From a virus (lineage: Duplodnaviria > Heunggongvirae > Uroviricota > Caudoviricetes): a stretch of DNA of 43,532 nt. Of this stretch, positions 20,257 through 43,532 are shown piece after piece; position 1 is the first letter of the stretch, and each line of letters starts with the position of its first letter. The stretch is taken from IMG/VR virus record IMGVR_UViG_3300024268_000012. One strand, written 5' to 3'. Position numbers and translations under genes: made by a program. The notes below the pieces were generated by a model, which did no database searches, had not been told where the DNA came from, and worked only from the letters and a program-made list of their open reading frames with translations.

Positions 20257-20836
20257 TGCGACTTTTGAAAAGATTAGTAAATATGCTGATGACAACTTGG
20301 TCGTCATCCCAACTCGCAAAACTGCCGAGTCAGCGGGGTACGACTTTTGTGCAGCAGAAGATACGATAATTCCTCCATTTGTTGAGATGGTCGAAGATGC
20401 AATGCTTGAGGATATTAACTCTCGCAAAGCGCAGTATGCCGATGTAAAAGAGTTTATGGCAGCTGAATACCCTTATACTCTCGACAAGATTGCGGCGATC
20501 ACTAAGCAGTATGATGCTAAGGTCGCTCTTGTGCCAACTGGTATTAAGTGTAAGATTCCGGGTGGTTATTATCTTCAGCTAAGTGTACGTAGTTCTTTGC
20601 CGCTTAAGCACTGGTTGATTCTGGGTAATGGTGTTGGTATCATCGACGCGGATTATTATAATAACCCAGATAATGAAGGACATATTTATTTCCAGATCAT
20701 TAATCTGTTACCGGTTCCCATTAAGATTCAGAAGGGTGAATGCTTCGGTCAGGGTGTTCTTCTTCCTTATGGTGTTGCTACTGGTGACAATGTAACCGCT
20801 ACTCGCGAGGGCGGATTCGGTTCTACCAATGGGTAA
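20246..20836 (+). CDS. dut: dUTPase / dCTP-deaminase family protein
   Basis: 'GVGIIDADYYNNPDNEGHIYFQIINL' resembles dUTPase motif 3 (G.IDxDYRG). The beta-jelly-roll family length (196 aa) fits. Confidence 0.7.
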   Translation: MNIDATFEKISKYADDNLVVIPTRKTAESAGYDFCAAEDTIIPPFVEMVEDAMLEDINSRKAQYADVKEFMAAEYPYTLDKIAAITKQYDAKVALVPTGIKCKIPGGYYLQLSVRSSLPLKHWLILGNGVGIIDADYYNNPDNEGHIYFQIINLLPVPIKIQKGECFGQGVLLPYGVATGDNVTATREGGFGSTNG

Positions 20837-21317
20837 GATTATATTAGCTTTAGATCAGGCCACTCGCGACAGCGGGTGGTCTATCTTTGATAATGGAGAA
20901 CTGATCGACTTCGGCCACTGGAGTTTCTCCCACGACGACGTAGCAATGCGTATCCATAGGCTTTGCTAGGAAATTGAGAAGAAAATTGAGGAATATGAAC
21001 CAGAGCTCATCGCTATTGAAAATATTTAGCTACAGTAGAACGTAGAGATGTTTCAAAAGCTAGCTTGGGTTCAAGGTGCTTTAATGCGCACCTGCGTTGC
21101 AAAAGGAGTTCCATATTAGTTAGTTCGTCCGTCCGAGTGGCGTGCGGAATGTGCTTTCCTTAAAGGCAATGATAAACATAGAGATAATCAAAAAAAAGTT
21201 GCGCAAACCTGGGTAATGGAAACCTTCGGTAAGAAATGTACGCAAGATGAATCGGATGCGATTTGTATTGGTTATGCTCTATCTAAACAAGAGGATAACA
21301 ATTGGGATTTTGAATGA
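20829..21317 (+). CDS. RuvC-like Holliday junction resolvase, read through 4 in-frame TAG codons (TAG recoded as sense, probably Gln)
   Basis: ATG overlaps the dut stop. 'KIILALDQATRDSGWSIF' is the RuvC/A22 N-terminal Asp motif and 'LIAIENI[TAG]L' is the catalytic Glu motif. The frame stays open to TGA at ~21315-21317 only if TAG at 4 positions is translated. No ORF is reported here by standard-code translation. Confidence 0.7.
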
Positions 21318-21331
21318 TTGGGCTAATTAGG

Positions 21332-21359
21332 TTCACTCTTTTCTCTTGATTTTTATAAT
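21332..21359 (+). promoter_or_regulatory. Possible weaker promoter for the recoded holin-like gene (TTCACT-N16-TATAAT)
   Basis: TTCACT ~21332-21337 and TATAAT 21354-21359, ~24 nt upstream of ATG 21383. Confidence 0.35.
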
Positions 21360-21382
21360 CAGAGAAAGGGGATGACTTTTGC

Positions 21383-21904
21383 ATGGAGTATGATTTATTT
21401 GATTATTTCCTCAAATGGCTCATTCCATTCGTCTGTTCAGGTCTCTTCGCGGCAATCGTTATTCCAGTATGGAACAGATATAAGCATGGACGCGACGCAG
21501 AATTAAAAGACAAATGGAATGTATATGCACAAGAAACCAAGAATGATATTGAAGCATTCAAAATCGAATCCAAAAAGAAAGACGTTGAATTAGAAAAGAA
21601 AATTGTCGACGTCTAGACTGCACTGCTTGATAAGATCGAACAAAATACCGCTGGTATACGTCAGGCGATTTTGCAGTCTCATTTAAGAGAATTGATTATT
21701 GATGGTAAAATGTATCTAAAGAATGAATATATTACTCTTGAGCAATTGGCAGATTATGAGGAACGTTTCTTAACTTATAAGACACTAGGCGGTAACGGAC
21801 ATGTGGATCCATGGATCGCTAAAATTCGTCAATTGCCTAATACTCCTCCGGAGCAAGTGGAAGAAACCGATTTTTCCGCACGCTCTAAATATCATCATGT
21901 GTAA
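21383..21904 (+). CDS. Membrane protein with single N-terminal TM helix (holin-like), read through 1 TAG
   Basis: ORFs 21383..21616 and 21671..21904 are in the same frame, separated only by TAG at 21614-21616. N-terminal TM 'LIPFVCSGLFAAIVIPVW', RBS gagaaagggg, followed by a strong terminator. Confidence 0.55.
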
Positions 21905-21912
21905 AAAAAAAT

Positions 21913-21950
21913 AAGGGAGACTAGATATTTTATCTAGTCTCCCTATTTTT
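21913..21950. terminator. Strong bidirectional rho-independent terminator
   Basis: Perfect 13-bp stem GGGAGACTAGATA/TATCTAGTCTCCC with TTTT loop, flanked by A8 upstream and T9 downstream. It sits where + strand and - strand units converge. Confidence 0.8.
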
Positions 21951-22047
21951 TTTTATGTTATATCGTCAAAAATCTAATTCGTATTAAATAAAATTTCTTT
22001 GCCAAATGTAGCAATTAAATCAGCGACCATTTCTTCTTGTTCTATAG

Positions 22048-22317
22048 TCATATTGACATTATAACTAAACATAGCAGCATGAACTATTGACCGTATTTCC
22101 TGCGGAAAGCCTAAAATTCAGTATCGAAGTCCTTACCTTGCTCGCGCATAAGGTTGCGGGCAATCTGTTCAATTTCTGCACTTCTATTGTTTTTGGCCAA
22201 GTTCAATAGATTTACTCCCATTGGAGTATTTTGCATACCCTGTAACAGATTCATCATTACTTGTTGCGGGTTCTAACCATTTTTAATCATACCGATAATC
22301 TAGTTCATCTGAACCAT
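22048..22317 (-). CDS. Small TAG-containing hypothetical protein (late)
   Basis: ATG at ~22317 preceded by gaggagggg. The frame is open to TGA at ~22048 if 4 TAG codons are read as sense. Protein MVQMN[Q]IIGMIKNG[Q]NPQQ... Confidence 0.45.
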
Positions 22318-22334
22318 TCGTGCTTCCCCTCCTC

Positions 22335-22712
22335 TCAAAACTGGGATGCAACATCATTTAGCTATTGTTTAGTCTCCTTCGGTGGGATAATCATTTGATT
22401 CATTGCCATTTGAATTTGCTACATTGCCTATTCAAATTCTTCTCTAGTTATAAAATTTAAATTGGCTTCATTAGTAAGAGGAATATTTTTTAGTTCGTAT
22501 ACATTCAGCGCAGCCGTTCCATCCATATTGATTTGTTTAGTGTAAATTCGCTTATTAGCTAAGTCTGGAAAGTAAAACACTGAACCATCGAAGTCAATTG
22601 AGGCGCCTCTGACTTCATCGAGAGAGGAGACTGGTCTTCCCTTTAATGCCATAGAAACGGGTCGGGAAGCCGGCTATTGAGCCTAAAAATAATTTGGATA
22701 AGTTGGATACAT
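22335..22712 (-). CDS. Small TAG-containing hypothetical protein (late)
   Basis: ATG at ~22712 preceded by aagaggg, with a TATATAAT box ~40 nt upstream. The gene includes ORF-track 22428..22652 and continues through TAGs to TGA at ~22335. Confidence 0.5.
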
Positions 22713-22925: not shown

Positions 22926-22931
22926 TGTTAA

Positions 22932-23336
22932 TTAACTAGCAGCTGCAAGCTTATTTACTTGTACCTGGGCTTCAATCAAAGTAGTCAAGTACTGATCGAA
23001 ATCTCCAAGGGCACTAGCAAGATACTCTTTAGCATCATCTGTAAGAATGGCTAAAACCGCACTCTTAGTCATTTCAAAAGCTTTCTTCTGTGCCTCAGGA
23101 TCAAAAGCATTTTGACCCTTAAGAGCATCTACATATGTTTGAGTTGTGGTTAAAACGCAATCGGTTACAGTCTCCTGTAACATAAGCACATACTTATCAT
23201 GCTTATCATTATCAACACGATTAATCAACTCGTTGCTCTTAGCATTAATAAACTTAATAAAATAAGTGCTCAATACAACCAAGAGCGGAATGATTACTAG
23301 TTCAAAAATTTGTTGAGCCATTTCCATCCATTCCAT
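22932..23336 (-). CDS. Lysis-associated membrane protein (one N-terminal TM; holin-like)
   Basis: 134 aa with N-terminal hydrophobic helix 'IFELVIIPLLVVLSTYFI' and a helical remainder. It is the last gene of the - strand late operon before a bidirectional terminator. Confidence 0.5.
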   Translation of the reverse strand: MEWMEMAQQIFELVIIPLLVVLSTYFIKFINAKSNELINRVDNDKHDKYVLMLQETVTDCVLTTTQTYVDALKGQNAFDPEAQKKAFEMTKSAVLAILTDDAKEYLASALGDFDQYLTTLIEAQVQVNKLAAAS

Positions 23337-23348
23337 AAAAAGACCTCC

Positions 23349-23702
23349 TTATCCGCAAGACTCCTCATCAGTCTCAGGATCTTGACCTACTTGCTCACGC
23401 AGTAGGGCTGTAATAAGTTTTCTTTGTGTGTCTAACTTAATTTCATTTTCAGCTTTTGCTTTATATGAATAAAAACCGGTCACTGTCGCACACTCAGCAA
23501 AGACCGCGGGAATTAGGTACATAAGCGCATCAATGTTATTAAAATACCACATTGCAATGCAAGAAAAGATGGTGATGGCAAGAGTGACAGCGCAAACTGC
23601 GATCACAAGAATTTTGCTGAAAGACCATTTCTTCTCCACCTTGGGAGAAAAAATGGTTTCAACATATTGAGTAGTCGCGCTTTTAATTCTGCGAGGAATC
23701 AA
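23349..23702 (-). CDS. Two-TM small membrane protein (holin candidate)
   Basis: 117 aa with two hydrophobic segments ('ILVIAVCAVTLAITIFSCIAMW', 'LMYLIPAVFAECATVTGFY') and a charged C-terminus. It lies directly downstream of the endolysin. The start codon is uncertain (TTG/ATT). Confidence 0.5.
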   Translation of the reverse strand: MIPRRIKSATTQYVETIFSPKVEKKWSFSKILVIAVCAVTLAITIFSCIAMWYFNNIDALMYLIPAVFAECATVTGFYSYKAKAENEIKLDTQRKLITALLREQVGQDPETDEESCG

Positions 23703-25673
23703 TTAAGCAACCGCCTTTGCAAGAGCTTCCCAAGTCTTGGGACCGCAAATGCCATCGACCTTAATATTTACTTTCTTCTGGAATGCGCGAACTGCATTCA
23801 CAGTTTTAGTGCCATAGTCACCATCAATACCATCTTTATTTTCGCCATAAGTACCAAGATCATATCCAAGTTTCTTCAAATTAGTTTGAAGAATTTTTAC
23901 ATAATCATTTTCAGCGCCTTTACGGATTGTTGGATATTTACTGAAATCAAGAGAAGGAGTGATTACGTTTTCATTATCATCATCAGAATCATCCTTACCT
24001 TGCGCAGCTTGAAGCTTTTTAAGAAGTTCTGCATCAACAATACCATCTGCCAAGATGCCATTATCACGTTCAAATTCTTTAACTGCAGTTGCGGTTTGAG
24101 AACCAAACTGACCATCAGCCTTATCTTCAAGTTCATATCCCAAATCCATTAAGATTTCCTGAAGTTCTTCAACATCAGCGCCAGTCATACCTTCTTTCAA
24201 AGGTAGACGCTCGCCAAGATCATAATCAGTCTTTTCGCCATCAAAAACAAGGAATGTATTCATAACATAACCATACTTGCCGTCAAAATAAGTTTTGCTC
24301 CAAGTTTCTTCACGCTCGTAAACATTAACCTTCTGGCCTTTAGGAATGCGAGCAAGAATGGACGCAGAGGTTGATTTGCCAGCACGCAAATTGAGTCTTC
24401 CAGAGACTGTAGTTACTACCGCAGTAGCAATAGGCTTAGGAGCTTCTACTTCTGGTTCTTCTGCTTTATATTCTCCAGATACGTATTTAATACCCGGAAA
24501 TTCATACCAATCAGTCCAAGGACGTTTATTTAAATCGGTAATGATAATACCCTTAGCAAACCCATAAGCTTCAACAACTTTACCATTACCAATATAATAG
24601 CCAACATGACCATCCTTGCGCACAGCAAGCCCAGGCACTTCTGGGATAGTTGCAATCTTACCATATTTTAAACCCTTGCTCTTGGCATAAGTGAACATAC
24701 TATTTGCAGATTTATCAGGGCAGTTATTTCCATATTTACTCTTGAAGGTCTTATCAGTACCAATAGATTCGATAACACCTTCACCGCCATAAGTCCAATT
24801 GTATCCTTTACCAAGTCCCACACAATCAGCAGAAACCATCTTCTTAGAAATGTGAGATTTATATGTAGCAGTACGATCACTACCATAATGAGAAGGATAT
24901 TGATTAGTTTTACTCTTTAAAGTAGAAGTTGTACATTTATATACACAAGTGCCATACCAATATGGCTGGCCAACCATTGCTTTCAAAAATTCTACAAAAT
25001 GTAAGTTAGTATATTTTTCATATTGAGACATAACATTCCCTCCTTGGGGTTTACCTTCCGTCGTCCCGACGATAGGTTCGCTCGGTTGGGTTACCACTAC
25101 CTCGCCATAATTCTTGCGAATTTCTGTACCTGGATAGTAGAATGCCAAAATTTCATCATATTTAACACCAATAGAAGCTGCATACTTAGCGCCGGTTTGA
25201 CTCATACCAACACCATGTCCATTCTTCTTGCCCTATGAGACGGCATAATCCCACGGGTCTTCTTGGGCGATTAAATATGCTCGCTTTCCGCCCCACTTTT
25301 CCTCACTTGAGTAGGTGCGGCCGCCGTTCATAGCACTGTAATGTGCATTTGTAACGATCTTGTTATTATAATAAAGAACTTCACCCTTCGTCTCTTCAAC
25401 TGCTTGATGTGCTCTTGCATATGAATTAGAGAAGCGTGAAGCGCGGAATGCCTAATCTGTTGAGGATTTGTCGCTAATAGATCCTTTACTCTAATAGCGA
25501 TATAAAGCGAAAGTGCGGGCCGCAACAGCTTGAGCTTTACCTGCTTCAAGAGCAGCATTACCTACTTCTGCGGGAACCACACCTTTTAGATATTCTTCAA
25601 TATCAATTTCAATTTCATCTTTACCATAATAGTCAAGATTTTCGGAGCGAGTAAGTTTTACTTTAATTAGCAT
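23703..25673 (-). CDS. Endolysin: SpoIID/LytB-like domain + Cys/His-containing central domain + two PG_binding_1 repeats; read through 3 TAG
   Basis: ORFs 25491..25673 and 23703..25205 are in the same frame (offset 468 nt). The span between them is open except for TAG at ~25491, ~25452 and ~25232. The N-terminus 'EEYLKGVVPAEVGNAALEAGKAQAVAARTFALY...GHGVGMSQTGAKYAA' is a SpoIID-type domain. The C-terminus has two 'DGxFGxxTxxAVxxFQ' peptidoglycan-binding repeats. RBS aaggagg. Confidence 0.8.
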
Positions 25674-25687
25674 GCTTATTCCTCCTT

Positions 25688-25726: not shown

Positions 25727-26041
25727 TTATTCAACAATCTTCTTTAAGCGAAGATTTACTTCACGACGGTCAATTTCTTCATTCATGGTATCAAACAAAG
25801 TATCAATCTTGAAATTATCAACCACATCGTACAAGAGCTCACCGTTCTTATCAAAAACATGTACAGCCTTAATAGTGATACCAACATAAGACTTAATATC
25901 TTCGATGGTGTCTGCAAGACTAGCTGCTGTGTTATCAAGGTAGCAGTTAAAATCATTGCCGAGCTCGCCATTTTCAATATGGCTATAATTTACGCTACGA
26001 ACGTCATAACGTGTTGCAGAATCGTTGAAACTAATAAACAT
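25727..26041 (-). CDS. Hypothetical protein (last gene of the rSAM operon)
   Basis: 104-aa ORF, 16 nt after the 226-aa gene, followed by a - strand terminator hairpin. Confidence 0.5.
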   Translation of the reverse strand: MFISFNDSATRYDVRSVNYSHIENGELGNDFNCYLDNTAASLADTIEDIKSYVGITIKAVHVFDKNGELLYDVVDNFKIDTLFDTMNEEIDRREVNLRLKKIVE

Positions 26042-26057
26042 GTTTTATTCTCTCCTT

Positions 26058-26738
26058 TTAGTTTGCTGGTGGAGGTGGTGGAGGCGGGGGAGGATTACAT
26101 CCACACTCCTCGGGTTTACTTCCATTCCAATCAGAGTTTTTTGGCCCTTCCTCAGGCTTTACTAAACCAAGCGCAGTTAAATAAGTTTGAGAAAGGCGAA
26201 GAGAAGCAGGACGAGACTGACGCCAAGATCTGAGTTCTTTAACAATGCTAGAAGAAGCTTGCATTAATTCAAGATAACCAGCGCCCATTTGTGCCAATGT
26301 ATATGTTGGCGCAAGAGTGTCTTGAATCAAACCAATGCGCTGGGCAATAGTCTGACTACGTTCATCTTCTGGACCATTAGACAATTTAAAGTCTAAATAG
26401 TTACCAAATACAGAGCAATATTGATGAACAATCGCGCACCAGGCACTCATAAAATCATTCCAGGGAAGCTTATCCTCAGTAAGAATAAGAGTTGGAAATT
26501 CATGTTCAATACGAATGAACATGTCTAAAGTGTCCTGAGAAATTGTAAATGCACCATCGTCCTCTCCCGGTTCCCAAGCTGTGATGGCATCAATTTGCTC
26601 CAATACTCTAATCATAATTAATGAAAGTTGCGGCTGAATGGCTGTTAAAATACGACCAATAGGACCCAAAGTATCAATTTCTTTCATCACATGATAGCGG
26701 GCCTCGCCATAAGAAAAATTACGAATTTCAGTTAACAT
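26058..26738 (-). CDS. Hypothetical protein with C-terminal Cys-Gly-Cys + Pro9 tail, coupled to the rSAM enzyme
   Basis: 226 aa. The start overlaps the stop of the upstream rSAM gene by 11 nt. The C-terminus is '...KPEECGCNPPPPPPPPPAN'. Confidence 0.55.
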   Translation of the reverse strand: MLTEIRNFSYGEARYHVMKEIDTLGPIGRILTAIQPQLSLIMIRVLEQIDAITAWEPGEDDGAFTISQDTLDMFIRIEHEFPTLILTEDKLPWNDFMSAWCAIVHQYCSVFGNYLDFKLSNGPEDERSQTIAQRIGLIQDTLAPTYTLAQMGAGYLELMQASSSIVKELRSWRQSRPASLRLSQTYLTALGLVKPEEGPKNSDWNGSKPEECGCNPPPPPPPPPAN

Positions 26739-28116
26739 TTAACTCCGTTACCTCCTCAAGATATTTGAATTGCACTTTCTTTTCTTCAGACAAATCTCTC
26801 CAAACTACACTCCACACCCCATGTTCTTGTAGCCATTTCATTTCAGTATAAATCATAGCATGAGCTACTGCACATACAGTAGGAATTGGAGTAATTAAAT
26901 TACGAGTGCATTCATATTGAGCACCAAGACAGGTGCCAGTACATAATTCATTAATAGGACATTGCGCACAATGCGGCAAAGATGCTTTATGCATAGAATA
27001 TGTTGAAATTAACAATTCCGGATTGATGCATTCAAATTTCAAAATTTCTTTTTCATCAGGCACCAATTTACCATAATACATATCTTCATATCCTGTGCGG
27101 TGACATGGATACATCATTAAGTCACTTACACGTAATGTAAATTGGCTTTGAATACCGCAGGTAAGACCACGTCCACAAGTTGTTAAAGGCTGACTAAACA
27201 TATTAAAACCATTTGCTTTAACTAACCAGCCTGCCATAGCATATGGATCTTTATTAATTTTATTTTCCCATACCCAATCAAGAACAAATCTCATAAATTT
27301 ACACAAAGACTGAACTTGATCATAATTCCATTCTTCATTGCGGACATGCAATAAATACAGGCTCTCCCATGGGATATTGTGTTTTTCCATCATTTCTTGG
27401 AACCACAAGAAATTTTGAGGCCATGCATCAATATTTCTACTATATACCATTGGATGCAAGCCACCATGAATCATATGAGAAAATTGAAATGCACGATCAT
27501 AGTACTCGTCATCTCGCACACCACCACCCAAATCCACATCTAGATCATGTAGATAAGGACGATTGTCTTCCATATATTTTCCATCAAAACTCGCACTAAG
27601 ACCTAGAGTAATACCTATACTTTCGAATTTAGCATGAAGTTCTTTTACTCTTGCAGTTGCTTCTTCAGAACACACAAAAGTAAAATTAGTAGGAATTACA
27701 ATTTCAATTGGACGATATAAAGGATCTAAATCCTTAAAATGTTCATAAATAGTTTCTAATACTTTATATCCAACTTCTTGAGCTAATAATTCACCAGAGA
27801 AAATTTCAATGTTAGCGTTCCAATCATTATGAGTGTACCATTGTAAAATAGTTTTTAGATTTTCAATAGTACGCTCTTCGTTGAAACAATCTTCACTAAA
27901 AATCTTTTTGCGATGACGATGTAAATAACAATATCTACAACCTAAATTGCAACGCGGTGAAATAATTAACTCAATATTTTTCATTTTCTGATCTCTTGGG
28001 GTATCAATAGAGAAATCATCATAAAAATATTTCTCAATTACCCAAGCGCCCAATTCATGATTTTCTTTTTGATATTGAGACAAACCAGTATCATTTACAT
28101 TGCAATGCTCGGCCAT
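26728..28116 (-). CDS. Radical SAM enzyme with C-terminal SPASM-like Cys cluster (peptide/protein-modifying type)
   Basis: 'ISPRCNLGCRYCYL' CxxxCxxC. The C-terminal region has 'CHRTG...C...CAQCPINELCTGTCLGAQYEC', typical of SPASM auxiliary Fe-S clusters. 462 aa. Confidence 0.8.
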   Translation of the reverse strand: MAEHCNVNDTGLSQYQKENHELGAWVIEKYFYDDFSIDTPRDQKMKNIELIISPRCNLGCRYCYLHRHRKKIFSEDCFNEERTIENLKTILQWYTHNDWNANIEIFSGELLAQEVGYKVLETIYEHFKDLDPLYRPIEIVIPTNFTFVCSEEATARVKELHAKFESIGITLGLSASFDGKYMEDNRPYLHDLDVDLGGGVRDDEYYDRAFQFSHMIHGGLHPMVYSRNIDAWPQNFLWFQEMMEKHNIPWESLYLLHVRNEEWNYDQVQSLCKFMRFVLDWVWENKINKDPYAMAGWLVKANGFNMFSQPLTTCGRGLTCGIQSQFTLRVSDLMMYPCHRTGYEDMYYGKLVPDEKEILKFECINPELLISTYSMHKASLPHCAQCPINELCTGTCLGAQYECTRNLITPIPTVCAVAHAMIYTEMKWLQEHGVWSVVWRDLSEEKKVQFKYLEEVTELNVN

Positions 28117-29507: not shown

Positions 29508-29528
29508 ATCTCCGTTTTCTCCTCTCGC

Positions 29529-31022: not shown

Positions 31023-31044
31023 TGTGGATTATTCCTCCTTTTTA

Positions 31045-32941: not shown

Positions 32942-35900
32942 TTAACGAACTTTAATCCAGATTCGTCCATTTACTTCAACATTACCAGTGCCCCAAGTCT
33001 CATAATTAGGGATTTCAGAAACAGTGCCAACAATACGATCAGGATACATCATAATTTCTTCTCTTGTCATTAAACTAACAGTGCCATTCGGACCAGTACA
33101 TACTGCTGCACCAAGAGGATAAGAATTTCTATCTTCATAAGTATATGCTAAAGCACGTCCAGCAACCGCCAAAGGAGTTTTACATTCGTTTGTTTCACCC
33201 ATAGCAGAACCAAAAGTATCAGATACAATACTTGCCCCAGCCTACAGTCTCTCTGTTGAAATTTTCATTTCTCCAGAAATATCTTCTATTACCACTCGGC
33301 CTGGCTCAACTGTTTCTGCTTTTCTAAATTCAGCATAGTCATTCCAAACAGCATTATATACTTTAGTACCATAAATAGCTCCAGCAACACCAAGACCACC
33401 AGATACTTTTAATGCACCAGAAGTAGTATTTGTTGCTGCGGTAGTATTTGTAATAGATACTACACCAGTAAATGTTTTAGTACCAGCAAAAGATTGTGTG
33501 CCGGTAGTTACAACGCCAGCTTGATTTGTTGCAGCATTAGGAACATATAATGTAGCAACGCCAGTGCCAGTAGCAATACTTAATCCACCAGTATAAGTCG
33601 GAGTATGATAATAGTTAGTGTTAGTATTTGGATTTGCTGGCATAGTTACCTTTAAGTCTACTCCAGCGACAGTACCAATAGTACTTGTTTGTCCCCATGC
33701 TAAAGTAGGGCCGCTATTAGTTACCGCTTTCCAAGAAGGAGCGGCAGAAGAGCCACCACTTGTTAAAATCTAACCCGCAGTTCCTGTACCCAAAGAAGCA
33801 AGAGCAGAAGAACTTGATGCATATACTAATCCATATGCTGTCCAAGATGTTTTTCCAGTACCGCCGTGACCGACCCCTAAAGTGCCAGTAATACCAGGAC
33901 GTGGGCTCGCCGCAAATACGTTAGCCGCGGTAGTAGAGCCAAGATTAACCAACATGGATGGATTTGAAGTAATTCCAGTACCACCATAAGCTACAGCAAG
34001 AGCATTGGTTAATTGTAAAGTAGGAATGGAGGTTGTACCATAAAATGTTACATCTTTATTATCCATTCCAATTCGCATTGCATTATTAAAAGTTGCTTCT
34101 GTGCTGGTGTTAGTTCCAGAACCAGAGGTTTGAAGCACAAAATAATTTGCATTAGATGATCCAGTTCCTAAAACACCCGCACGCCATTCTGCCCCATAAT
34201 TGGTAGTTTGATGTTCCCAAATAATAAACTTATCAGTATCACCAGTTAAAATACGAATATCGTCATTAAAGGTTTTTGCACCAGCAAATGTTTGCGCGCC
34301 AGTGGTGACAACGCCTCCTTGCGTAGCATTTGCTGCATCAAGCGTAACAGTTCTATTTTTTCCTGCGACAGTAATAGATAAAGTTTCACCATTAGCTCCT
34401 GCAGTAGAACTAAAGTTGCTAAATAGTGAGCTCGCATCACAAGATGTTATTATACCACCGTTTAAATAAACTGGTACACTTGCACTACCAGCTGTTCCAG
34501 TTAATGCTTTAATTTCACCACTAGACATATAGACAGGCTGAGTAGTTGAACCAAGAGTGGAGGATGATGCTGTTAATGTACCAGCATTTAAGAAGATTGG
34601 TTTTGCGCTTGCACCAACACTGGCGCCAGAAGCCTTAATTATACCATCTTCCATATAAATTGGTTTAGTCGCGCTACCAATATCTGAGGTAGACGCTGTG
34701 ATTGTACCACTATTTAAAAATACTGGATTATTAGATGCACCAACAGTAGAGGACGATGCTGTTAATGTACCAGCATTTAGATACATAGGAACAATACCAG
34801 ATCCAACCGTAGAAGTGGATGCTGTTGCTGCACCATCTGCTGCGATATATACAGGCTTTACTCCAGAACCAATTGCAGTATCATTGGTATGAACTACAAA
34901 CTGATATCCCGTAGTAGATGCTGCGACATTAGGTAAATTAAATACGTTACTATTCGCCGTACCAGAATCAATGCGAACGTCATAATCAGCAGTAGAAGCA
35001 TTGGTCTTATGAAAGTCTAAATAACGACCAATTTCACTTACACCAGATCCATTAACAGTAACAAAACCATTGTTAAACCATGCGCCAGATTTTGGTAAAG
35101 TAATAGTAATAGTTTCATCCGCGCCCTTATTGGTATGACCATAAGTATCAACAGTAATCTGCGGAATGGCAAAAGAGGTTGCGGCTCCAGTTAATGTTGT
35201 AACAGTATTGCCGCTAGTATAACCACTACTTGGTCCCTTCTTAGCATGCTTTGCGTCATAGGTGACTCCGTTAGTTCCAGCAGTACCAGTTAAAACAACA
35301 ATATCATCATCTGTTGCTGTTGCACTAATATTAATCTATACATTCTTTTTAGTGACAGTAATTTTACCATTGGTATCTTGGCTAATAGTATCAATAAAAG
35401 CGGATGCATTACCTGATGTACCTGGGCTAGACACAGCAGTTTGAAGAACCTTGTAGCTACCTTCATCACCAAGCAATTCCCAGCGACTATTGTAACTATT
35501 CCAAACATATTCTTTTGTGCCATAAATAACCACATCGCCAGCTAAACGATCATCGGGCCAAGTATATCCAGAAATTTTAGGATCAGTATTACTTTGATTT
35601 GTGATAGCTACGGTAGCAACACCGATATAATGCATTGCATTTGTTAAACCAAGATTAATACGTAGCTGCTCGGCAGTAATTGAACCTCCAAGAGAAACAC
35701 TTGTGCCTGCAATATTAACTGAAGAATTAACTAATTTATTATTAGCAATTGATCCCGCTAACATAGCATTGGTAACTTTACCAGTGCCAATAGTAGTAGT
35801 GATGTTCCAATCGGCACTTCCATTAGAAGAGCCTGTGCCACCTACGTCTCCACTTAAAGTAACTGCTCGTGATGCATTAAGTTTAGAAGCAGAAGTGGCA

Positions 35901-37276
35901 TTACCACTGAATGTAGTTGCATATACAGTTCCTTGCGCATAAATATTCTTCCATCTAGCAGTATCTGTACCAAGACTATATGTATTATGTGCAGAAGGAT
36001 TAATATGTTGAGCAGTGGTAGTTCCACCAATTGTAGCACCACTCGCACCAATTTCTGCCTTTTTAGCAACAATAGTTTCACCAAATGTTGCACCACCAGT
36101 AACGGTTAATGCTTGTGTAGCATGATTACTACCAATAACTGCTGTTCCAGTACTTGTTAACTTTGCAGAAGCAGTAATATATGGAGCAGAAATAGTGCCT
36201 TCAGAACTAATATTTCCAACCGCTGCAATAGTAGAAGATGCACTTATAGCACCAGTAAAAGAAGATGTTTCAGTTACAGCAAGAGTGCTTTGTAATGTGG
36301 TTGCGCCAGTTGCTTTTAAAGTTCCATTAGCAACAATATTTTTTAAATTTGCAACGCCAGCTCCACTAACATAATATGTTGTACCACCAAAATATAAAGA
36401 AGTGCCTGACGCTACAGTTGTTTTATTATTTAAAGCTACTGTATTAGTAAAAGTAGTAGCTCCATTGAAAGCCGCAGTTCCAGAGGCGGTCAAATTAGAA
36501 GCAATAGCTACAGGAACCGCTGCGATGTTTAATGTATTTGTTGTGTCAGAAAGAGTTTGATAAATAATAAATTGAGAGGCTTTATTATCAAAGATACCTC
36601 TTGTTACAGAAGTTGCTTTCATTTGCCATCCATGAGAACTGTTTTTCACATTAACATAAGCATCTCCACTAGAAGTGTTGATTGTTAATGGACCAGTCAT
36701 CGTATCGCCATCAATATTCACATATAAATCATCTAAAGCAGCTTCACAGTTTGTTAAAAAATTATTAACTGTTAAAATCGGACTATTATTGTGATATAAA
36801 TTGCTAGCATCACTTGTATATAAATACAACCCTCCAACTTGAGGATTTGTAGATTCTGCCAAACTTAAAATTGCCTTACCAGCGCTATCTTTAATAGCTT
36901 GCCCACTACTAAGAGTGACACCAGAAGACAGAACAGGGGAGGACTTAAAAGTCTTCACTCCATAAATTTCTTGAGCAACTAAGCTCAAAACACCAGAATG
37001 GTCTGATGAAGCATATGGCAATTCTCTAATTGCCTCTTGACCACCAACTTCTAATTTAATACAGCTGGCTTTTTCATCGTCGCCATCTGCTTTCACAAAA
37101 GTGATTACAGGCGCACCTGTTAATAAATCTGCGTACTAAGCATTTAACGGCACTCTCTCTGTGGCAGTATCAATATAAAACTTACCATTATCAGGAGTAA
37201 AATAAGCATAACCTTCAGTTATTTTTTGATTACCTAAGCTTGCCGCAGGACCTTTAAAAATCTTAAAAAGAGCCAA
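32942..37276 (-). CDS. Tail fibre / receptor-binding protein (~1445 aa), read through 4 TAG codons
   Basis: ORF-track pieces 35336..37096, 33770..34786, 33242..33643 and 32942..33202 are all in one frame, joined by TAG at 35336, ~33690 and 33242. A further TAG at ~37137 extends the N-terminus to a TTG/RBS (ggggaggg) at ~37276. It ends at TAA 32942. It contains Gly/Thr/Ser/Ala-rich ~17-aa tandem repeats (YLNAGTLTASSSTVGAS-type). Confidence 0.7.
33770..34786 (-). repeat. Intragenic tandem ~17-aa Gly/Ser/Thr/Ala-rich repeats within the tail-fibre gene
   Basis: Six consecutive units of the type '(Y/F)(L/M)N(A/S)G(T/I)(L/I)TAS(S/T)S(T/D)(V/L/I)G(A/S)' are visible in the translated ORF (MYLNAGTLTASSSTVGAS / NNPVFLNSGTITASTSDIGS / KPIYMEDGIIKASGASVGAS / KPIFLNAGTLTASSSTLGST ...). 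Confidence 0.6.
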
Positions 37277-37307: not shown

Positions 37308-37901
37308 TTATGAAATATATAATTCATGCCAACGTACCGCTTTATCTTCTAAGATAGCAATACGGGCAAGTAATTCCTCAACGCCATCCACGCTTAAGTC
37401 CTCTTGTTCAGCACCCATTTCATTAGTTGGGAAACCTTTAAGAATATTTGCAGCACAGGCTTGAGTACTTAAATTATATACATAAATATCTTCTGCGGGA
37501 TCAATAGTATAGAAACGAACAACGAATTTAATTGGACCCGCACTTTTGGTTGCCCCTTTTCCAAGTTTCCAACCAAAATAAATTTTATTAGGATCGGTAG
37601 TAGTGTCCATATCTAAGACAGGACAAATTCTTCCTTCCTTGCTTGCGTTTAAATATTCAATAACACAAGTCATTGTAGATAAGTCTACTGAATCAAAATA
37701 CCGATCAGCACAAAAATATACTGTATCCGCTTGGTGGTCATTTTCCACACCGAGGAAAGACTGGTACTCAGTAGGCAAAGTTAGCTTACGAGAGTTCCAG
37801 TCAATCTCGATAATGGGCTGAGCTAATTCAACATGATCAGCAAGCATAATGGTGGTATTTTGAATAGACTTTAACACCTTATCATAATTAGAAAAAGCCA
37901 T
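37308..37901 (-). CDS. Structural (tail/baseplate) protein, paralogous to the N-terminus of the adjacent 589-aa protein
   Basis: 197 aa. 'TVYFCADRYFDSVDLSTMTCVIEYLNA...FVVRFYTI' parallels 'IIFFKVPRWFDAMDLNETLCVVQWYNA...FALRFYAL' in 37921..39690. Confidence 0.55.
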   Translation of the reverse strand: MAFSNYDKVLKSIQNTTIMLADHVELAQPIIEIDWNSRKLTLPTEYQSFLGVENDHQADTVYFCADRYFDSVDLSTMTCVIEYLNASKEGRICPVLDMDTTTDPNKIYFGWKLGKGATKSAGPIKFVVRFYTIDPAEDIYVYNLSTQACAANILKGFPTNEMGAEQEDLSVDGVEELLARIAILEDKAVRWHELYIS

Positions 37902-37920
37902 TCAAAACTCCTCCATTTAA

Positions 37921-39690
37921 TTATTCTTCGTATTCAACAGTAACTTTTCCGTTACGATCTTTCTTTAAAGTAACCTTCTTAGATTCGGTAAGTTCACCGC
38001 TAACAACCATATTAGTACCATCAAATACCTTATGATAAATCTTACATCTGTAGCTATAAGAGTTATAGGTTGCATTTGCTGGCTGTTCCAAAACAGGAGT
38101 AATGGTGAGAGTGGTGTCAGATAGATTGCTGACACCAGTGGCTTTTTCTGTAACCTTGTCACAAGTCCAGCTAATTACCCATTCTTCTGGATGGATTGCA
38201 GATTTACTATCTAATGGGAAAATAGGCTCTGCAGTAATCTTAGAATCATTATAAGTCAACTTAACTTCAGTTGGCTTATCTGGCCAAGCGCGCAAAACGC
38301 AAGGGGTGCCAACTGCCAATGGCTCAGACTTTGTATTGTTGCGATAATTAATTGCATGGCAAGAAACAATACCTTCTGTATCCTTTGGAGGAATATAAGT
38401 ATTTCCGTCTACGCCATCAGTTACTTCTACATCGTCAAGAGTCCAAGTATACTTCACATCTGCAGGCTTATTGTAGCCAGTGACATCAAAGATTAACTTA
38501 TTGGTATAAGTAGTTTGTCCTTCTTCTGCGGATGGAGTCTCACCCAAGGAATACATTTTAATTGGGAACTTACTAATATCACCATGCTTCAATTCTGCGG
38601 CAGCAGGAATTGTTGCGGTCTTAGTGTTAATCCAACGAGTACCGGAAGCTGCAGTCTTATTACCAATTTGTGCGAAATAAGTACCAGCAGTGGTAACTAC
38701 ATATTCCTCATCTTCTTCTACAACATTCTCAAGAACGTCATAAAGTTGTTCTTTACCACGATACCAGCGATATACAACTTCACCGCCCTGATCCTTGTTT
38801 GGAGATTCGCCTTTAACAGCTAAACGAAGAATACCATCTGGGTACAATAGATTACCATCTTCATCCTTTAATTCGGCATAATCTTCATAACCCTCAACAT
38901 CAGTACTAAGTTCATATTCAACGGTATTATCCAAATCAAGAACAATAGTAGGTGCAGCACCATCAAGAGAGTTAATTACACCAGAGTATACTGGACGAGT
39001 ACGAATCAAGTTCTCCAAGTCAGTATCTAATTCGGCACCAACCACATCAAGATCAAGAGTACCCTTAATTGCGCAAGAGCTCTTCTGAGTAGCAACACTA
39101 TAAGTGATTGTTGCAGGATCGGTACCATAGTCAAGAGCGTAGAAACGAAGAGCAAATTCGATAGAGCCGCTCTGCTCAGTCATCTCATTAGTAATAACCC
39201 AACCAAGAAGAACAAAGTCATGAGACTCGGTCTCACCAGTCTCAGCGTTAATTACAACTTCCTCTGAATAAACGTCAGTTAAAATAACAGGAGAGTTGCC
39301 CTGCTTTACCTTCTTGTTATTTGCATTGTACCACTGTACCACGCATAGAGTTTCATTTAAGTCCATTGCATCAAACCAACGAGGGACTTTAAAGAAAATA
39401 ATTTCAGCATTGGTATCGCCCTTAACACCAACACCAACATTTTTGAATTCGTTGGGTACGGTAATTGTACGGGCATCCATGTCAACTTCAAAAGGTGGCT
39501 CCTCTAATGGGAGACGATAAAACTTATTACTTAAGTTCTTACCATGCTCTCTTGCAACCTGTAAGGCGTTAAAATAAGTAGCTAATTCACCCTCTTGAAG
39601 AGAAACACCATATTGAGCTACATCAATCTGTAAATCATCAAAGAGTTTCTTATATTCTTCCTTGAATTTCTTAGTAATTACTACTTTCAT
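37921..39690 (-). CDS. Structural (tail/baseplate) protein
   Basis: 589-aa ORF with RBS gagaaagggg. The N-terminal domain is shared with the downstream 197-aa paralog. It sits in the tail module. Confidence 0.6.
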   Translation of the reverse strand: MKVVITKKFKEEYKKLFDDLQIDVAQYGVSLQEGELATYFNALQVAREHGKNLSNKFYRLPLEEPPFEVDMDARTITVPNEFKNVGVGVKGDTNAEIIFFKVPRWFDAMDLNETLCVVQWYNANNKKVKQGNSPVILTDVYSEEVVINAETGETESHDFVLLGWVITNEMTEQSGSIEFALRFYALDYGTDPATITYSVATQKSSCAIKGTLDLDVVGAELDTDLENLIRTRPVYSGVINSLDGAAPTIVLDLDNTVEYELSTDVEGYEDYAELKDEDGNLLYPDGILRLAVKGESPNKDQGGEVVYRWYRGKEQLYDVLENVVEEDEEYVVTTAGTYFAQIGNKTAASGTRWINTKTATIPAAAELKHGDISKFPIKMYSLGETPSAEEGQTTYTNKLIFDVTGYNKPADVKYTWTLDDVEVTDGVDGNTYIPPKDTEGIVSCHAINYRNNTKSEPLAVGTPCVLRAWPDKPTEVKLTYNDSKITAEPIFPLDSKSAIHPEEWVISWTCDKVTEKATGVSNLSDTTLTITPVLEQPANATYNSYSYRCKIYHKVFDGTNMVVSGELTESKKVTLKKDRNGKVTVEYEE

Positions 39691-39695
39691 TAAGA

Positions 39696-40163
39696 TTATT
39701 CCCCTTTCTCAATTTTAACCAATTGTTGGAATAATTCAACAATTTCAGTGTAATAGCTTTGAACTTGAGCACCAAGAGCCTGAGTTAAATAAATCTAACG
39801 AGTAATTTCAAAATTAGTCGCTTTTAAATCAATAGTAAACTCAGAAGACAACCGATAATCTGATGTCCCTGGAGCCAAAGTCATAAGCTGAAGAGTCGTT
39901 TTTCCAGAAATTAAACGGACCGGTTGCCGCAAAGACACTCTGTAAATGTTGTAAGCTGTATCTGCGGCTGGCTGCTTAAATTCCAACTCAACTACATCCC
40001 GCATCCCCTTATCATCTGTCATAATTAAAAAGACTTGATCAAGAATTCTCGGATTCTTATTTTTAGATACATGAAATTCAATATCAACCAAATCAGTTCC
40101 TGAAGCAAAACCTCTTGCAGGATTTAATTTGTCAAGTCTATCAAAATACATAATTGCGGCCAT
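39696..40163 (-). CDS. Hypothetical structural-module protein, read through 1 TAG
   Basis: ATG at ~40163 with RBS ggaggataac. ORF-track 39795..40217 ends in TAG at 39795. The frame continues 33 codons to TAA at ~39696, 5 nt before the next gene's RBS/start. Confidence 0.5.
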
Positions 40164-40460: not shown

Positions 40461-40478
40461 ATCCCTATTCTCCTTTTA

Positions 40479-43400
40479 TTAAGCTTGCATAATTTGGACA
40501 AGATTTGGATTAGCTGTAATATGAAGATCATAGTTAGTAATCCAATCATCTACATAGGAAAGAATTTCATCATATGAAGTACTGTTATTATCGTAAGTAA
40601 CAACAAAACTACTTAAAGATAAATATTCTTGAGAGCTTGCACCAAACATGGCATTTGTTGACAACCAAGTTAAAGCGTTTGCATTAATTGGTCTTTGAGC
40701 GGTGCCAAAATTAATAATAGACCAACCACAGTTTTGGAATGTCTTATTACCATAAGCAGCACCAAAATCTTCAATACCATCATTGTTAGTGTCTCCAAGA
40801 CTGTACTCATTATAAGGAACAGTAAGAACAACACAATCCTTATTTCGGCATGCATTTGCAAATGCACTATTGCCAAAATAGCTAACATTGTTAGTATTGT
40901 CAACCACTAAATTAGTACAATTTCTGAAGCAGAAAGTTCCAATAGTAGTTAGTGAGTCAGGGAAATCAACATGAACTAAGCTGGTTGCTTTATCAAATGC
41001 AAAATCATTAAATTTATAAATCTTACTTAAATTCTCTGCATTTTCTTGACAACCTAAGAAGAACACAGCGTACAGATCAGTATTTTGACACATACCATTA
41101 GATACAGAGCCTGTTGCAGAAGTACCTGCAGCAATTTCTAAGATCGGCCATTCGACACCTTGTTCATCAAATACGGTAATTGGGAAACAAACTTTTCCAC
41201 CAATGCCATAAGTAGGATCAAGACCAACAATAGCATAATTGCCAAGAACGGCGTCTGTTTTATAAGTAATATTTAAATACTGCTGATCAATTATATTGTC
41301 ATAAACACTACTTTCCATGTAAACCGCATAGAAGTTCATGTCGCTACCTGCTAAAATACGATTTAAATCGGTGGTGTCAGTAGAAGAAGTAAGAGAAGTA
41401 TGCCAACCAATAAATTTATAACAAGAAGTCAAAGCCAAAGAGGTGCTATCTCTTTGAGGAATTCTAGTAGGAGTAATAATTGGCTTACCAGCAGGAGTTT
41501 CAATTTCTTCAAACAAAGAGCCATCATAATTATAAAAGCTCATAGTATAACCATGCACTTTATATACTGCAACAACAGTTACGCGTCCACCATCAATAGC
41601 AGATAAGACGTGAGTATTTAATTCATTAGTTGCATAAAGTGTAACTTTATCATTATCGGTAATTACGGAATGTGCCGCTCTAAAATCAAATGTGCCATCT
41701 TCAATTGCCCAACCAACAAAGTCATAATGCAATCTAGAAGGTTCTTCTCCTTCGTAAACTACTGGGGACTCAGCATATCCATAAGGATACTTTAACCATC
41801 CAAGTGTCTTTTGAACACCTTCTGCATTATATTCAACAAAATGAACAGAATAAGCAGGATTTACTTTGTCACCAGTAATTTCAAGATCTGGATAAAGTGC
41901 ATTATAACGTTTCCACAAAGTATATTCGTCTAATGCATCTCCCTCTTCCTGATTGTTCACGTGCATACGACCAGTTAAGCCTGGAAGAATTTTAGTATTT
42001 GGTAAAAGTTCATTATAAGTTAAGAAAGAGCGGTAACGATAAGTATCAGTTTCCACAGTTGCGGTTTTATCCTCATACATATCTAAGAAAGCTGTTACAA
42101 TATCAAGATTTTTAATGACGTTTGTATCAAAAGCATCATCAAAAGTATAAATTACACCATCATTAAGTTTATTGATCCAGCCTTCCTCATAATAACCAGT
42201 AGCTCCGTTAGGATCATGGTATACTTCGTAAGTGGTTTGATTTTTTAATTCATAATACTTTGTTGCACGATCGAAAGATGTACCAATTTCAACTAATTTA
42301 TATGGAGACCATTCCACATCGGTAAAGTCACACTTTAAAATAGGTGTGGTATTTCCATCAGTAATAATGCCATTGTGTTTAGCTTCTTTTACTTTATATA
42401 AGTAATCTAACAAACGATAAGAATCAATACCCATTTTACTTCTGTCTAATACAAATGTCTCAATATTACAAGTTGTATTAGCATTAGGAGTAGTGGTATA
42501 TTTATCTGTTAAATTCTTAATATATAAACCAGTTGGAGTATTATCAATGGTTGGAGCTGTTTCTACAATACCCCTTAATTCAAGAGGTTGTTTCAAAACA
42601 AAGGAGGTAATTGTTTCTGGCAAGTACAAGGTCTTTAACAAGTTACCTTCAGTAAACTCGACAGAACTTAATTGTGTACCTGTTGCCATAAAAGTATTAA
42701 TTTTTTCAGCACCAGTTAATTGAAGAGAACCAGCCAACTTAGTTAAATTAGATAGGTCCATATATGTCAAAAGTCCTTTTGGACTTGTAGCAGTGATAGC
42801 CAAAGCATCAATAAATTTATCTGTGATACCATCATTGCGATAGCCATCTATCAAAGAACCAAGTGTGAAAGTACGCAAACGAATTGCTTGAGAATAGTCA
42901 ATTTCATTAAGGTACTTGTCACTTAAGTTGCCAAGATCCGCGATATATTCTGGACCGCGAATATAAGCCAACTGTTGAGACAATGGAACGCCATCGTCTA
43001 AGCGGTTTTTAATAGAAGATGGTGGGTCAATAAGAACAGGATCGTCTTGACCGGCAACATAAGGCTTAGGCGTGGTAGCAGTTTCATCATATACTACAGA
43101 TAGATACTGAGATAAGTATCCATGTAGATTGAATGATGCACTTGCCTGCAAACCTTCTACTAAGTTACCTTCTTCATCTTTAGTATCATCAGAAGTACGA
43201 GCAAGGTCGTTTGCATTATAACGCAATTTAATTTGCTTCTTAATAAATTCAGGATTATAAGAACCACCTAACCACTGAGAGTCAAGATAATTCAAACGAT
43301 TGCGGAAGAATGCTTGACGATTTAAAGTTCTATCACCTTGCAAGCAGTAGAAATAACCTTCAGTTTGAGAAATAGTTCCTTCTTGATCGGTATATCCTGT

Positions 43401-43532
43401 AGTTGCAGGAGAGATATATTTATAATCAGCGTCAATGTTCTTCATAATTTCGCTCCACTTGTCAGAACCATTGGTATTATAATGTTCATTAAGTGTATCG
43501 AGTTCAATCGCACCTTCATTGCGTAAGCCGCG
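40479..43532 (-). CDS. Large structural/adhesin-like protein with C-terminal BspA-type leucine-rich repeats (5' end beyond window)
   Basis: The 988-aa ORF is open upstream to the window edge (no stop in frame through 43532). The C-terminal region has LRR_5/BspA-like 'IGTFCFRNCTNLV...FGNSAFANACRN...FQNCGW' repeats. Genuine TAA stop at 40479. Confidence 0.7.
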   Translation of the reverse strand, partial: RGLRNEGAIELDTLNEHYNTNGSDKWSEIMKNIDADYKYISPATTGYTDQEGTISQTEGYFYCLQGDRTLNRQAFFRNRLNYLDSQWLGGSYNPEFIKKQIKLRYNANDLARTSDDTKDEEGNLVEGLQASASFNLHGYLSQYLSVVYDETATTPKPYVAGQDDPVLIDPPSSIKNRLDDGVPLSQQLAYIRGPEYIADLGNLSDKYLNEIDYSQAIRLRTFTLGSLIDGYRNDGITDKFIDALAITATSPKGLLTYMDLSNLTKLAGSLQLTGAEKINTFMATGTQLSSVEFTEGNLLKTLYLPETITSFVLKQPLELRGIVETAPTIDNTPTGLYIKNLTDKYTTTPNANTTCNIETFVLDRSKMGIDSYRLLDYLYKVKEAKHNGIITDGNTTPILKCDFTDVEWSPYKLVEIGTSFDRATKYYELKNQTTYEVYHDPNGATGYYEEGWINKLNDGVIYTFDDAFDTNVIKNLDIVTAFLDMYEDKTATVETDTYRYRSFLTYNELLPNTKILPGLTGRMHVNNQEEGDALDEYTLWKRYNALYPDLEITGDKVNPAYSVHFVEYNAEGVQKTLGWLKYPYGYAESPVVYEGEEPSRLHYDFVGWAIEDGTFDFRAAHSVITDNDKVTLYATNELNTHVLSAIDGGRVTVVAVYKVHGYTMSFYNYDGSLFEEIETPAGKPIITPTRIPQRDSTSLALTSCYKFIGWHTSLTSSTDTTDLNRILAGSDMNFYAVYMESSVYDNIIDQQYLNITYKTDAVLGNYAIVGLDPTYGIGGKVCFPITVFDEQGVEWPILEIAAGTSATGSVSNGMCQNTDLYAVFFLGCQENAENLSKIYKFNDFAFDKATSLVHVDFPDSLTTIGTFCFRNCTNLVVDNTNNVSYFGNSAFANACRNKDCVVLTVPYNEYSLGDTNNDGIEDFGAAYGNKTFQNCGWSIINFGTAQRPINANALTWLSTNAMFGASSQEYLSLSSFVVTYDNNSTSYDEILSYVDDWITNYDLHITANPNLVQIMQA

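Follow-up and report, generated by a model that had tools for sequence, protein, structure and literature searches.

TAG codons predicted to encode glutamine in the late genes, and absent from the early genes, of a tailed phage of roughly 168 kb

How can a phage whose lysis and virion genes are interrupted by stop codons make the proteins encoded there? This question is raised by the IMG/VR record IMGVR_UViG_3300024268_000012 (Duplodnaviria; Heunggongvirae; Uroviricota; Caudoviricetes), of which the whole stretch of 43,532 nucleotides, called the window from here on, was analysed. A first-pass annotation of the same DNA had proposed that TAG is translated in the late genes, presumably as glutamine, while the genes upstream of 20.8 kb have no TAG in frame. 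Comparison with related phages indicates that TAG is indeed a glutamine codon from the RuvC-like Holliday junction resolvase gene onwards. Very probably, a phage-encoded tRNA with the anticodon CUA reads it there and acts as a switch, the early genes being neutral to the code.

The window corresponds to the first ~43.5 kb of several ~168-kb contigs (167,964, 168,127 and 168,877 bp), retrieved from ENA and JGI by exact-protein look-up and 100% identical to it across overlaps of 11-16 kb. The first of these contigs is ena:ERZ27248314:k141_1461088 and the last jgi 3300022661 Ga0216339_10000283. At least seven samples gave the identical sequence in independent assemblies, and the phage occurs in dozens of assemblies. 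It is a tailed phage of roughly 168 kb, with an SPbeta-like replication module and an endolysin of Gram-positive type. This endolysin type (SpoIID/SH3/PG_binding) points to a Gram-positive (Bacillota) host.

TAG codons were counted in reading frames delimited by TAA and TGA only. In the replication and nucleotide-metabolism module that makes up the early and middle genes (97-20836, + strand, SPbeta-like), none of the 6675 codons of the 19 scored genes was TAG and all stops were TAA or TGA, as the first-pass annotation had stated. In the 18 late genes, 26 of 7157 codons were TAG (Fisher p = 4.1e-8). They were spread over nine genes, starting with RuvC at 20829, and each of these nine is open only with TAG as sense, again in agreement with the earlier claim. 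All 26 interruptions were TAG, with zero in-frame TAA or TGA and no frameshift. The 37 scored genes ended in TAA or TGA, the latter in eight cases. The base following TAG was not special, its distribution being the same as after CAA and CAG. Further TAG-containing frames were found downstream of the window in the same phage, namely a 2004-aa open reading frame (ORF) with 18 TAGs and one of at least 1441 aa with 11.

Gene calling gave the same picture. With a greedy caller, the coding density of 20796-43532 rose from 0.864 under code 11 to 0.968 with TAG as sense, while that of 1-20795 was practically unchanged (0.951 and 0.954). The proposed re-calling with code 15 thus raised density in the late half only. 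Setting TGA or TAA as sense instead brought no gain in coding density in the window. The JGI gene calls cut the tail fibre into pieces of 46, 586, 338, 133 and 86 aa; those of ENA, made on the same DNA, continue across the TAGs.

The amino acid encoded by TAG was deduced from orthologues in five related phage loci, where 83 sites paired TAG with a sense codon. Glutamine was found opposite TAG at 26 of the 83 sites (background 3.4%), followed by Lys (11), Thr (8) and Glu (7); Ser occurred three times, Leu once, and Tyr and Trp never. In a maximum likelihood comparison, based on substitution probabilities from the same alignments, Gln was ahead of the next-best residue, Lys, by 47 nats. The partner codons included CAA at 20 sites and CAG at six. 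CAA is two mutations away from TAG, not a one-step neighbour, and therefore the link between TAG and glutamine exists at the amino-acid level.

Similar exchanges were found between close strains. In L068 (97% identical) and L067 (91%), eight of the 11 TAG/sense differences involved CAA or CAG. They included window TAGs in three late genes, all on the - strand: the tail-fibre-like protein of ~1444 aa (32942-37276; TAGs 37138, 35338, 33772 and 33244), the 497-aa repeat protein A (29529-31022; TAGs 30950, 30533 and 30143) and a 155-aa structural-module protein (39696-40163; TAG 39797, codon 123). TAG coordinates refer to the first base of the codon for + strand genes and to its highest coordinate for - strand genes. 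In repeat protein A of L067, codon 164 is CAA and codon 294 is TCA. In the tail fibre of the close strains, codon 1345 is CAA and codon 1169 is TAC, and codon 123 of the 155-aa protein is CAG in L067. Among relatives diverged by 20-45%, the TAG positions shift while the late frames stay open.

Two conserved enzymes place TAG on known glutamine positions. The RuvC-like resolvase gene (20829-21317, +) has TAGs at 20967, 21027, 21036 and 21117 (codons 47, 67, 70 and 97). Its Pfam RuvC match runs across them (profile positions 1-144 of 148). Homologues of full length numbered more than 170. At the DNA level there is a reciprocal exchange with locus L008: Q10, Q76 and Q125 of the window are TAG in L008, and TAG67 and TAG70 of the window are Gln codons there. 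The column of TAG67 has Q in 108 of 117 homologues, some of these Qs being translated TAGs. The endolysin gene (23703-25673, -), encoding SpoIID, SH3_3 and two PG_binding_1 domains, has TAGs at 25493, 25454 and 25235 (codons 61, 74 and 147), and the Pfam SpoIID match covers residues 22-102, across TAGs. PHROG matches, too, extend over the TAGs. TAG74 corresponds to the conserved Gln of the SpoIID 'DQ' motif; 112 of 150 diverged representatives have Q at this position, as does PDB 4rwr. The first-pass annotation had placed all four RuvC TAGs in conserved catalytic motifs and three TAGs inside the SpoIID domain. This holds for TAG67 and TAG74, both on conserved motif positions, but the other three RuvC TAGs and the other SpoIID TAGs fall in variable columns.

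Codon usage fits in with these comparisons. Glutamine is encoded in the early genes by 134 CAG and 96 CAA, and in the late genes by 51 CAG, 153 CAA and 26 TAG. With TAG counted, Gln content is 3.45% for early and 3.21% for late genes. By sequence comparison, then, TAG is glutamine in the late genes of the window, and the assignment made at first pass stands on both the homologue alignments and the CAA/CAG interchange in orthologues and near-identical strains.

The change in coding takes place at the border between the dUTPase and RuvC genes. The dUTPase gene, which is TAG-free and stops at TAA, shares its last 8 nt with the start of RuvC at ATG (ATGGGTAA); the two genes also overlap in the gene calls of L008, L011, L023 and L025. 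RuvC carries TAGs in loci L008-L012, in which its DNA was read. The 8-nt overlap argues for one translationally coupled unit, and the two genes are probably co-transcribed. RuvC would thus belong to a unit of TAG-free genes and yet is not completable under the standard code, which agrees with control through decoding. What changes at the boundary is the coding, with no obvious separate transcription unit. Among relatives the boundary is not absolute: in L008 a TAG aligns within the frame of the dUTPase, and the dUTPase of the published phage phAss-1 is recoded (PMC10607447).

A candidate for the decoding tRNA was found in a relative. The window itself has no tRNA by ARAGORN or Rfam, and no Rfam family whatsoever, as the first-pass annotation had noticed for tRNAs; it had placed the suppressor elsewhere in the genome. 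The relative, IMGVR_UViG_3300029305_003293 (173 kb), has the same gene order, with 62-74% protein identity to the early genes of the window. It encodes a 93-nt tRNA with the anticodon CUA (L028:2086-2178; Rfam tRNA, 52 bits), within an array of 23 tRNAs located 41.9 kb upstream of the window-equivalent start. The expected suppressor is therefore present in the array of a syntenic relative, but was not found in the sequence of this phage that was read. In its anticodon arm, 5-bp extra arm and T arm it does not differ from the suppressor of phAss-1 that is annotated second. From these conserved blocks a family pattern was built (GGTCTCTAAAACC ... CCCTCTGAAGG ... GGGTTCGA), which matched 25 metagenome, 11 IMG/VR and two metagenome-assembled genome (MAG) loci, mostly inside large tRNA arrays. 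The resulting family (L028:2086-2178, L015:8603-8690, L029-L066) has the 5-bp extra arm with a CCCTC-TGA-AGGAGG region and is common to phAss-1-like phages and phages of 160-180 kb. The search pattern itself accounts for part of the conservation seen in these three arms; compensatory changes occur across the family in the acceptor and D stems. The family further has G73, a weak or mismatched 1-72 pair, G2-C71 and G10.

The 168,960-bp contig Ga0247610_10000063 (= IMGVR_UViG_3300031992_000016) carries the suppressor and, by its size, was considered as a copy of this phage; its flanks share one 38%-identical protein with the tRNA array of the relative, and nothing else, too little to call it the same phage. 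No member of the family of a PDDEXK gene inside that array was found on any 168-kb contig, and a metagenome scan with a protein from downstream of the window returned nothing. Five concatenated proteins of the array, used as a query, returned only long unrelated methylase and intein proteins. In GTDB genomes the suppressor pattern matched two short MAG contigs only (Bacillota, Nanosyncoccus), which is not enough to name a host. The release-factor motif GGQ[HNS][VI][NQ] was absent from six-frame translations of all loci read, which gives no signature of release factor 2 (RF2). The array of the relative also holds a 72-nt tRNA of opal-suppressor type, with a UCA anticodon (L028:8461-8532; Rfam tRNA, 44.5 bits), in contrast to the use of TGA as ordinary stop in eight of the 37 window genes. 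A more distant relative, IMGVR_UViG_3300033148_005579, has an array of at least 13 tRNAs (L020:7969-13640), with no CUA in the part read. This array wraps a homologue of the early gene L018:810-1295, which has no nearby tRNAs in the 173-kb relative.

Taken together, we consider a decoding switch to be the very likely explanation, as far as genome comparison can tell. The replication and nucleotide genes, needed first, would be read identically under the standard code of the host and under a TAG-sense code. From RuvC on, through the lysis, tail-fibre and other virion genes, TAG would serve as a Gln codon. During infection a phage-encoded amber suppressor tRNA (CUA), encoded in a large array, would accumulate and out-compete release factor 1 at UAG. 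Before it builds up, late messages would be translated only to their first TAG: an early RuvC product would end at codon 47, before the catalytic Glu, and an early endolysin product at codon 61, inside the catalytic domain. We infer that the window phage carries the same tRNA as its relative, that a host enzyme charges it with glutamine, and that the recoding is a timing gate.

Several observations weigh against this explanation. TAG is absent from nine of the 18 late genes, among them those of the best holin candidates, and its positions show no N-terminal bias (Kolmogorov-Smirnov p = 0.24), although such a bias might be expected of a pure gate model. The ~74 kb that was read of the genome of this phage (-4.4 to +69 kb, downstream via L006, L014 and L027) yielded no tRNA, and the suppressor-family pattern had no match on a 62-kb IMG/VR contig covering ~49-111 kb of the ~168-kb genome. 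In the relative, ~25 kb of TAG-free + strand genes are followed, going upstream, by a TAG-containing block of ~10 kb and then by the tRNA array. The block encodes two radical SAM enzymes, a glycosyltransferase, PhoH and a deoxyribosyltransferase. Since these TAG genes lie upstream of the TAG-free replication genes, genome position does not simply reflect timing. The proposed confinement of recoding to late, lysis and structural genes thus applies within the window, but is too narrow for the lineage. The 5-bp extra arm of the suppressor is atypical for tRNA-Gln, and with G73 the tRNA could in principle be of serine type. Only evolutionary data argue for glutamine as the amino acid of the suppressor. 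Most Bacillota are not known to have a glutaminyl-tRNA synthetase, which makes the charging route a weak point of the explanation. Finally, one of the 26 TAGs lies at an ancestral stop position.

This TAG (22084-22086, -) is the last of four in the gene of an 89-aa protein (22048-22317, -; TAGs 22302, 22275, 22113 and 22086), and the alignment puts it exactly on the TAA that ends the L023 orthologue. The first-pass statement that every genuine gene ends in TAA or TGA is correct for all 37 scored genes; at this position it is not strictly safe. Read-through would append 12 hydrophobic residues (QFMLLCLVIMSI), up to the TGA at 22048-22050, so that the long form would end YGQQFMLLCLVIMSI and the short form YGQ. 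The TAG may be a leaky stop, or a Gln codon adding the 12-residue hydrophobic extension. A variant of the decoding switch that builds on this site and on the unusual extra arm appears rather unlikely to us. In it, UAG would be read by the extra-arm suppressor, with glutamine charged via glutamyl-tRNA synthetase and GatCAB or by an unrecognised phage factor, and UAG at 22084-22086 would have a dual reading, giving the short product early and the extended product late.

Another explanation is that TAG is sense but stands for Ser, Lys, Glu, Tyr or pyrrolysine. The class-II-like extra arm and G73 would suit serine, Lys, Thr and Glu do occur opposite TAG (11, 8 and 7 of 83 sites), and single TAG/TCA, TAG/TAC and TAG/GAG differences exist between close strains. 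The family to which Dehalobacter belongs includes pyrrolysine systems. The second suppressor of phAss-1 is most similar to a Dehalobacter tRNA (PMC10607447). We nevertheless regard another amino acid as very unlikely, given the lead of 47 nats for Gln, the scarcity of Ser (3/83) and Leu (1) and the absence of Tyr and Trp. CAA dominates the partner codons, eight of the 11 near-strain changes lead to Gln codons, and the conserved Gln columns of SpoIID and RuvC coincide with TAGs. As to pyrrolysine, tRNA-Pyl is compact, with a 3-nt variable loop and atypical D and T loops, and goes together with pylS and pylBCD genes, but the CUA tRNA fits the general Rfam tRNA model end to end, with a canonical cloverleaf and the 5-bp extra arm. 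ARAGORN labels any CUA tRNA 'Pyl', and the parts that were annotated showed no pyl genes. The suppressor agrees with the glutamine identity elements of E. coli in G73, G2-C71, G10 and its weak or mismatched 1-72 pair.

Very unlikely indeed is that TAG remains a stop, the late proteins being truncated or derived from rare spontaneous read-through without a phage suppressor. The lack of a tRNA in the readable parts of the genome and the coincidence of TAG 22084-22086 with the stop codon of an orthologue would agree with it. Truncation, however, removes catalytic residues in RuvC and the endolysin, and the sequence beyond the TAGs is conserved at the protein level. Rare read-through would give no useful yield of a tail fibre with four TAGs or of the downstream genes with 11 and 18. 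The conserved CUA tRNA in relatives speaks against it as well.

That there is no switch, and that the host itself reads TAG as glutamine with the phage matching its code, seems improbable in the extreme. Such a reading of TAG is not known from any bacterium. Nothing favours the idea directly, although phages that share an alternative code with their host (code 25) have been noted (Borges et al. 2022, bioRxiv 10.1101/2021.08.26.457843). A constitutive code 15 does not explain why the 19 early genes avoid TAG both as sense codon and as stop, and the relative carries its own suppressor tRNA. Hardly any credence can be given to sequencing or assembly errors or to decaying pseudogenes of a defective element: the late region does look fragmented under code 11, as in the JGI tail fibre pieces, but the TAGs were the same in independent assemblies with 100% identical DNA, a check suggested at first pass that excludes sequencing error, every interruption is TAG, and the frames are open in diverged relatives where TAG swaps specifically with Gln codons.

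The remaining genes of the window are arranged in two converging blocks. On the + strand, the early and middle module encodes YorF-like, Sak4/AAA_24, YorH-like, DnaB, primase, RecJ, Dda helicase, DAHP-synthase-like and GmrSD_N proteins, a DnaE-type polymerase, guanylate kinase, NrdD, NrdG and dUTPase. The block closes with RuvC and one further gene (21383-21904, +), for a 173-aa protein with one N-terminal membrane helix and TAG 21614 (codon 78). This codon is TAG in the L008 orthologue too and a real Gln codon in L023 and L025. The product had been labelled holin-like, a label we dropped as it matched only PHROGs of unknown function. A bidirectional hairpin resembling an intrinsic terminator (21914-21944; 14-bp stem, T-runs on both sides) lies where the + and - gene blocks converge, and the cumulative GC skew has its maximum there.

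From 22048 to the window end every gene is on the - strand, in a block of small proteins, the endolysin, two radical SAM enzymes, two repeat proteins, the tail fibre and further structural proteins. Next to the 89-aa protein is the gene of a 125-aa protein (22335-22712, -), with five TAGs (22685, 22676, 22430, 22421 and 22364). The C-terminal Phe beyond the last TAG is kept in two orthologues, and this TAG is clearly sense because the residue following it is conserved. Two small membrane proteins (22932-23702, -), TAG-free and encoded directly downstream of the endolysin, are better holin candidates than the 173-aa protein. Other TAG-free late genes (25727-29510, -) encode a 104-aa protein, a 226-aa protein with a poly-Pro tail and two radical SAM/SPASM enzymes similar to peptide maturases (26728-28116 and 28095-29510, -). 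Repeat protein B (31045-32661, -; 538 aa), rich in Tyr, His, Ser and Asn like repeat protein A, has its single TAG at 32637 (codon 9). Two structural-module proteins of 197 and 589 aa (37308-39690, -) contain no TAG. The window ends within the gene of a BspA-type leucine-rich repeat (LRR) protein (40479-43532, -; the C-terminal 1017 of 2437 aa), TAG-free in its window part. Codon 487 of this part is GAG in the window and TAG in strain L068.

The radical SAM/SPASM genes, the poly-Pro-tail protein and the two repeat proteins form a cassette (26058-32661, -). The repeat proteins, each of ~500 aa, consist almost wholly of short Tyr/His/Ser/Asn/Thr/Gly repeats, with no family match, and the radical SAM genes had weak NCBIfam matches only (PapB, YhhB, HxsB), all far below the cut-off. 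The cassette lies at a different genomic position in a relative and was also found at L014:1-780, L019:515-3714 and L025:14332-17102. It looks like a system for radical-SAM-modified, possibly cross-linked, phage proteins.

Some features of the surroundings were recorded as well. A perfect sigma-70-type consensus (TTGACA, 17-nt spacer, TG-TATAAT) is located at 19145-19173 (+), just 5' of the gene at 19177; overall, the count of promoter-like sites in the window was not above the shuffled expectation. The first window gene is present on 22 contigs, all of which stop 0-4.4 kb before the window begins, within a gene whose product has 793 aa in the relative. In strains 91% identical over the late region (contigs of 173.6-173.9 kb) the same upstream region sits mid-contig. 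The gene therefore seems not to end there; this suggests that assemblies break repeatedly at this point, for example because the locus is variable or repeated or carries a terminal repeat. A GIY-YIG endonuclease gene upstream of the window is strain-variable, being present (L002:2025-2984, L004:2370-3329) or absent. In the relative L023 the DnaE polymerase gene is split into 445 and 781 aa around a 203-aa ORF (L023:1628-2239), which looks like a homing-endonuclease or intron-type insertion.

The practical consequence is that standard-code calling shreds about half of the late genes of this phage. Genes for lysis and host recognition are overlooked or given a wrong length as a result, and contigs of this kind may escape recognition as viral. 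The lineage also makes the timing hypothesis testable, with its sharp and conserved switch point at the dUTPase/RuvC overlap, the reciprocal TAG/Gln exchange between strains diverged by 3-9%, and a conserved extra-arm suppressor tRNA shared with phAss-1.

The first-pass annotation had likened the recoding to that of crAss-like and Lak phages. The likeness is apt, the nearest published case being phAss-1 (PMC10607447) and possibly the Agate clade (bioRxiv 10.1101/2021.08.26.457843). PhAss-1 (Babkin et al. 2023, PMC10607447; GenBank OQ749652; NCBI 'Caudoviricetes code 15 clade'; proposed Phassvirus) has a genome of 136 kb and a DnaE polymerase. TAG is read as Gln in 41 of its ORFs (~28%), mostly virion genes and some for DNA processing. 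It encodes 36 tRNAs, including three suppressors, and no dedicated aminoacyl-tRNA synthetase, and its predicted host belongs to the Clostridia (PMC10607447). Like phAss-1, the window phage is large and has a DnaE-type polymerase, NrdD, an SPbeta-like replication module and TAG as Gln. The second suppressor of phAss-1 is homologous to the CUA tRNA known here from the relative, not from the window phage. Unlike phAss-1, whose suppressors lie directly upstream of nrdD, the window has no tRNA near nrdD; its genome is ~168 kb in place of 136 kb, and megablast gave no nucleotide-level similarity. The genus Phassvirus is defined by >80% nucleotide identity, and the wider group by TerL, major capsid protein (MCP), tape measure protein (TMP) and DnaE phylogeny (PMC10607447). 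The window phage is not a Phassvirus, because it has no nucleotide similarity to phAss-1, its polymerase is 38% identical and the tRNA placement differs. A megablast search of GenBank phages with each window half likewise gave no match.

The replication module (YorF, YorH and a YorL-type DnaE polymerase) resembles that of Bacillus phage SPbeta and Enterococcus phages EF1/VRE9. The polymerase is 38-39% identical to theirs, about as distant as from phAss-1. SPbeta and EF1/VRE9 use the standard code, unlike the window phage, and no recoding was found in EF1 (PMC10607447).

Recoding across gut-phage clades was surveyed by Borges et al. 2022 (bioRxiv 10.1101/2021.08.26.457843), who proposed that it prevents premature expression of lytic genes. 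As in those clades, structural and lysis genes are recoded, recoding of replication genes is variable, several modules are recoded and, in the relative of the window phage, suppressor tRNAs occur; unlike there, the sequence read here has no RF2 signature. The Agate clade, from cattle and pig, has genomes of 154 +/- 27 kb (bioRxiv 10.1101/2021.08.26.457843). The window phage is of a similar size class, and the CUA and UCA tRNAs of its relative echo the mixed TAG/TGA recoding within Agate. Agate membership is defined by terminase phylogeny, and the likeness here rests on size, modules and the tRNAs of the relative.

For crAss-like (Crassvirales) code-15 phages, TAG as Gln was validated by metaproteomics (Peters et al. 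2022, PMC9523058), and this proteomic proof concerns crAss-like phages only. They share with the window phage TAG as Gln in late genes and a standard code in early genes. They differ from it in being an unrelated podovirus lineage of Bacteroidota, with other gene content and another tRNA complement. Stop-codon recoding of gut-phage late genes is thus an established phenomenon. The window phage leaves the current picture of phage recoding unchanged, with no new mechanism, and adds a widespread lineage to the code-15 phages.

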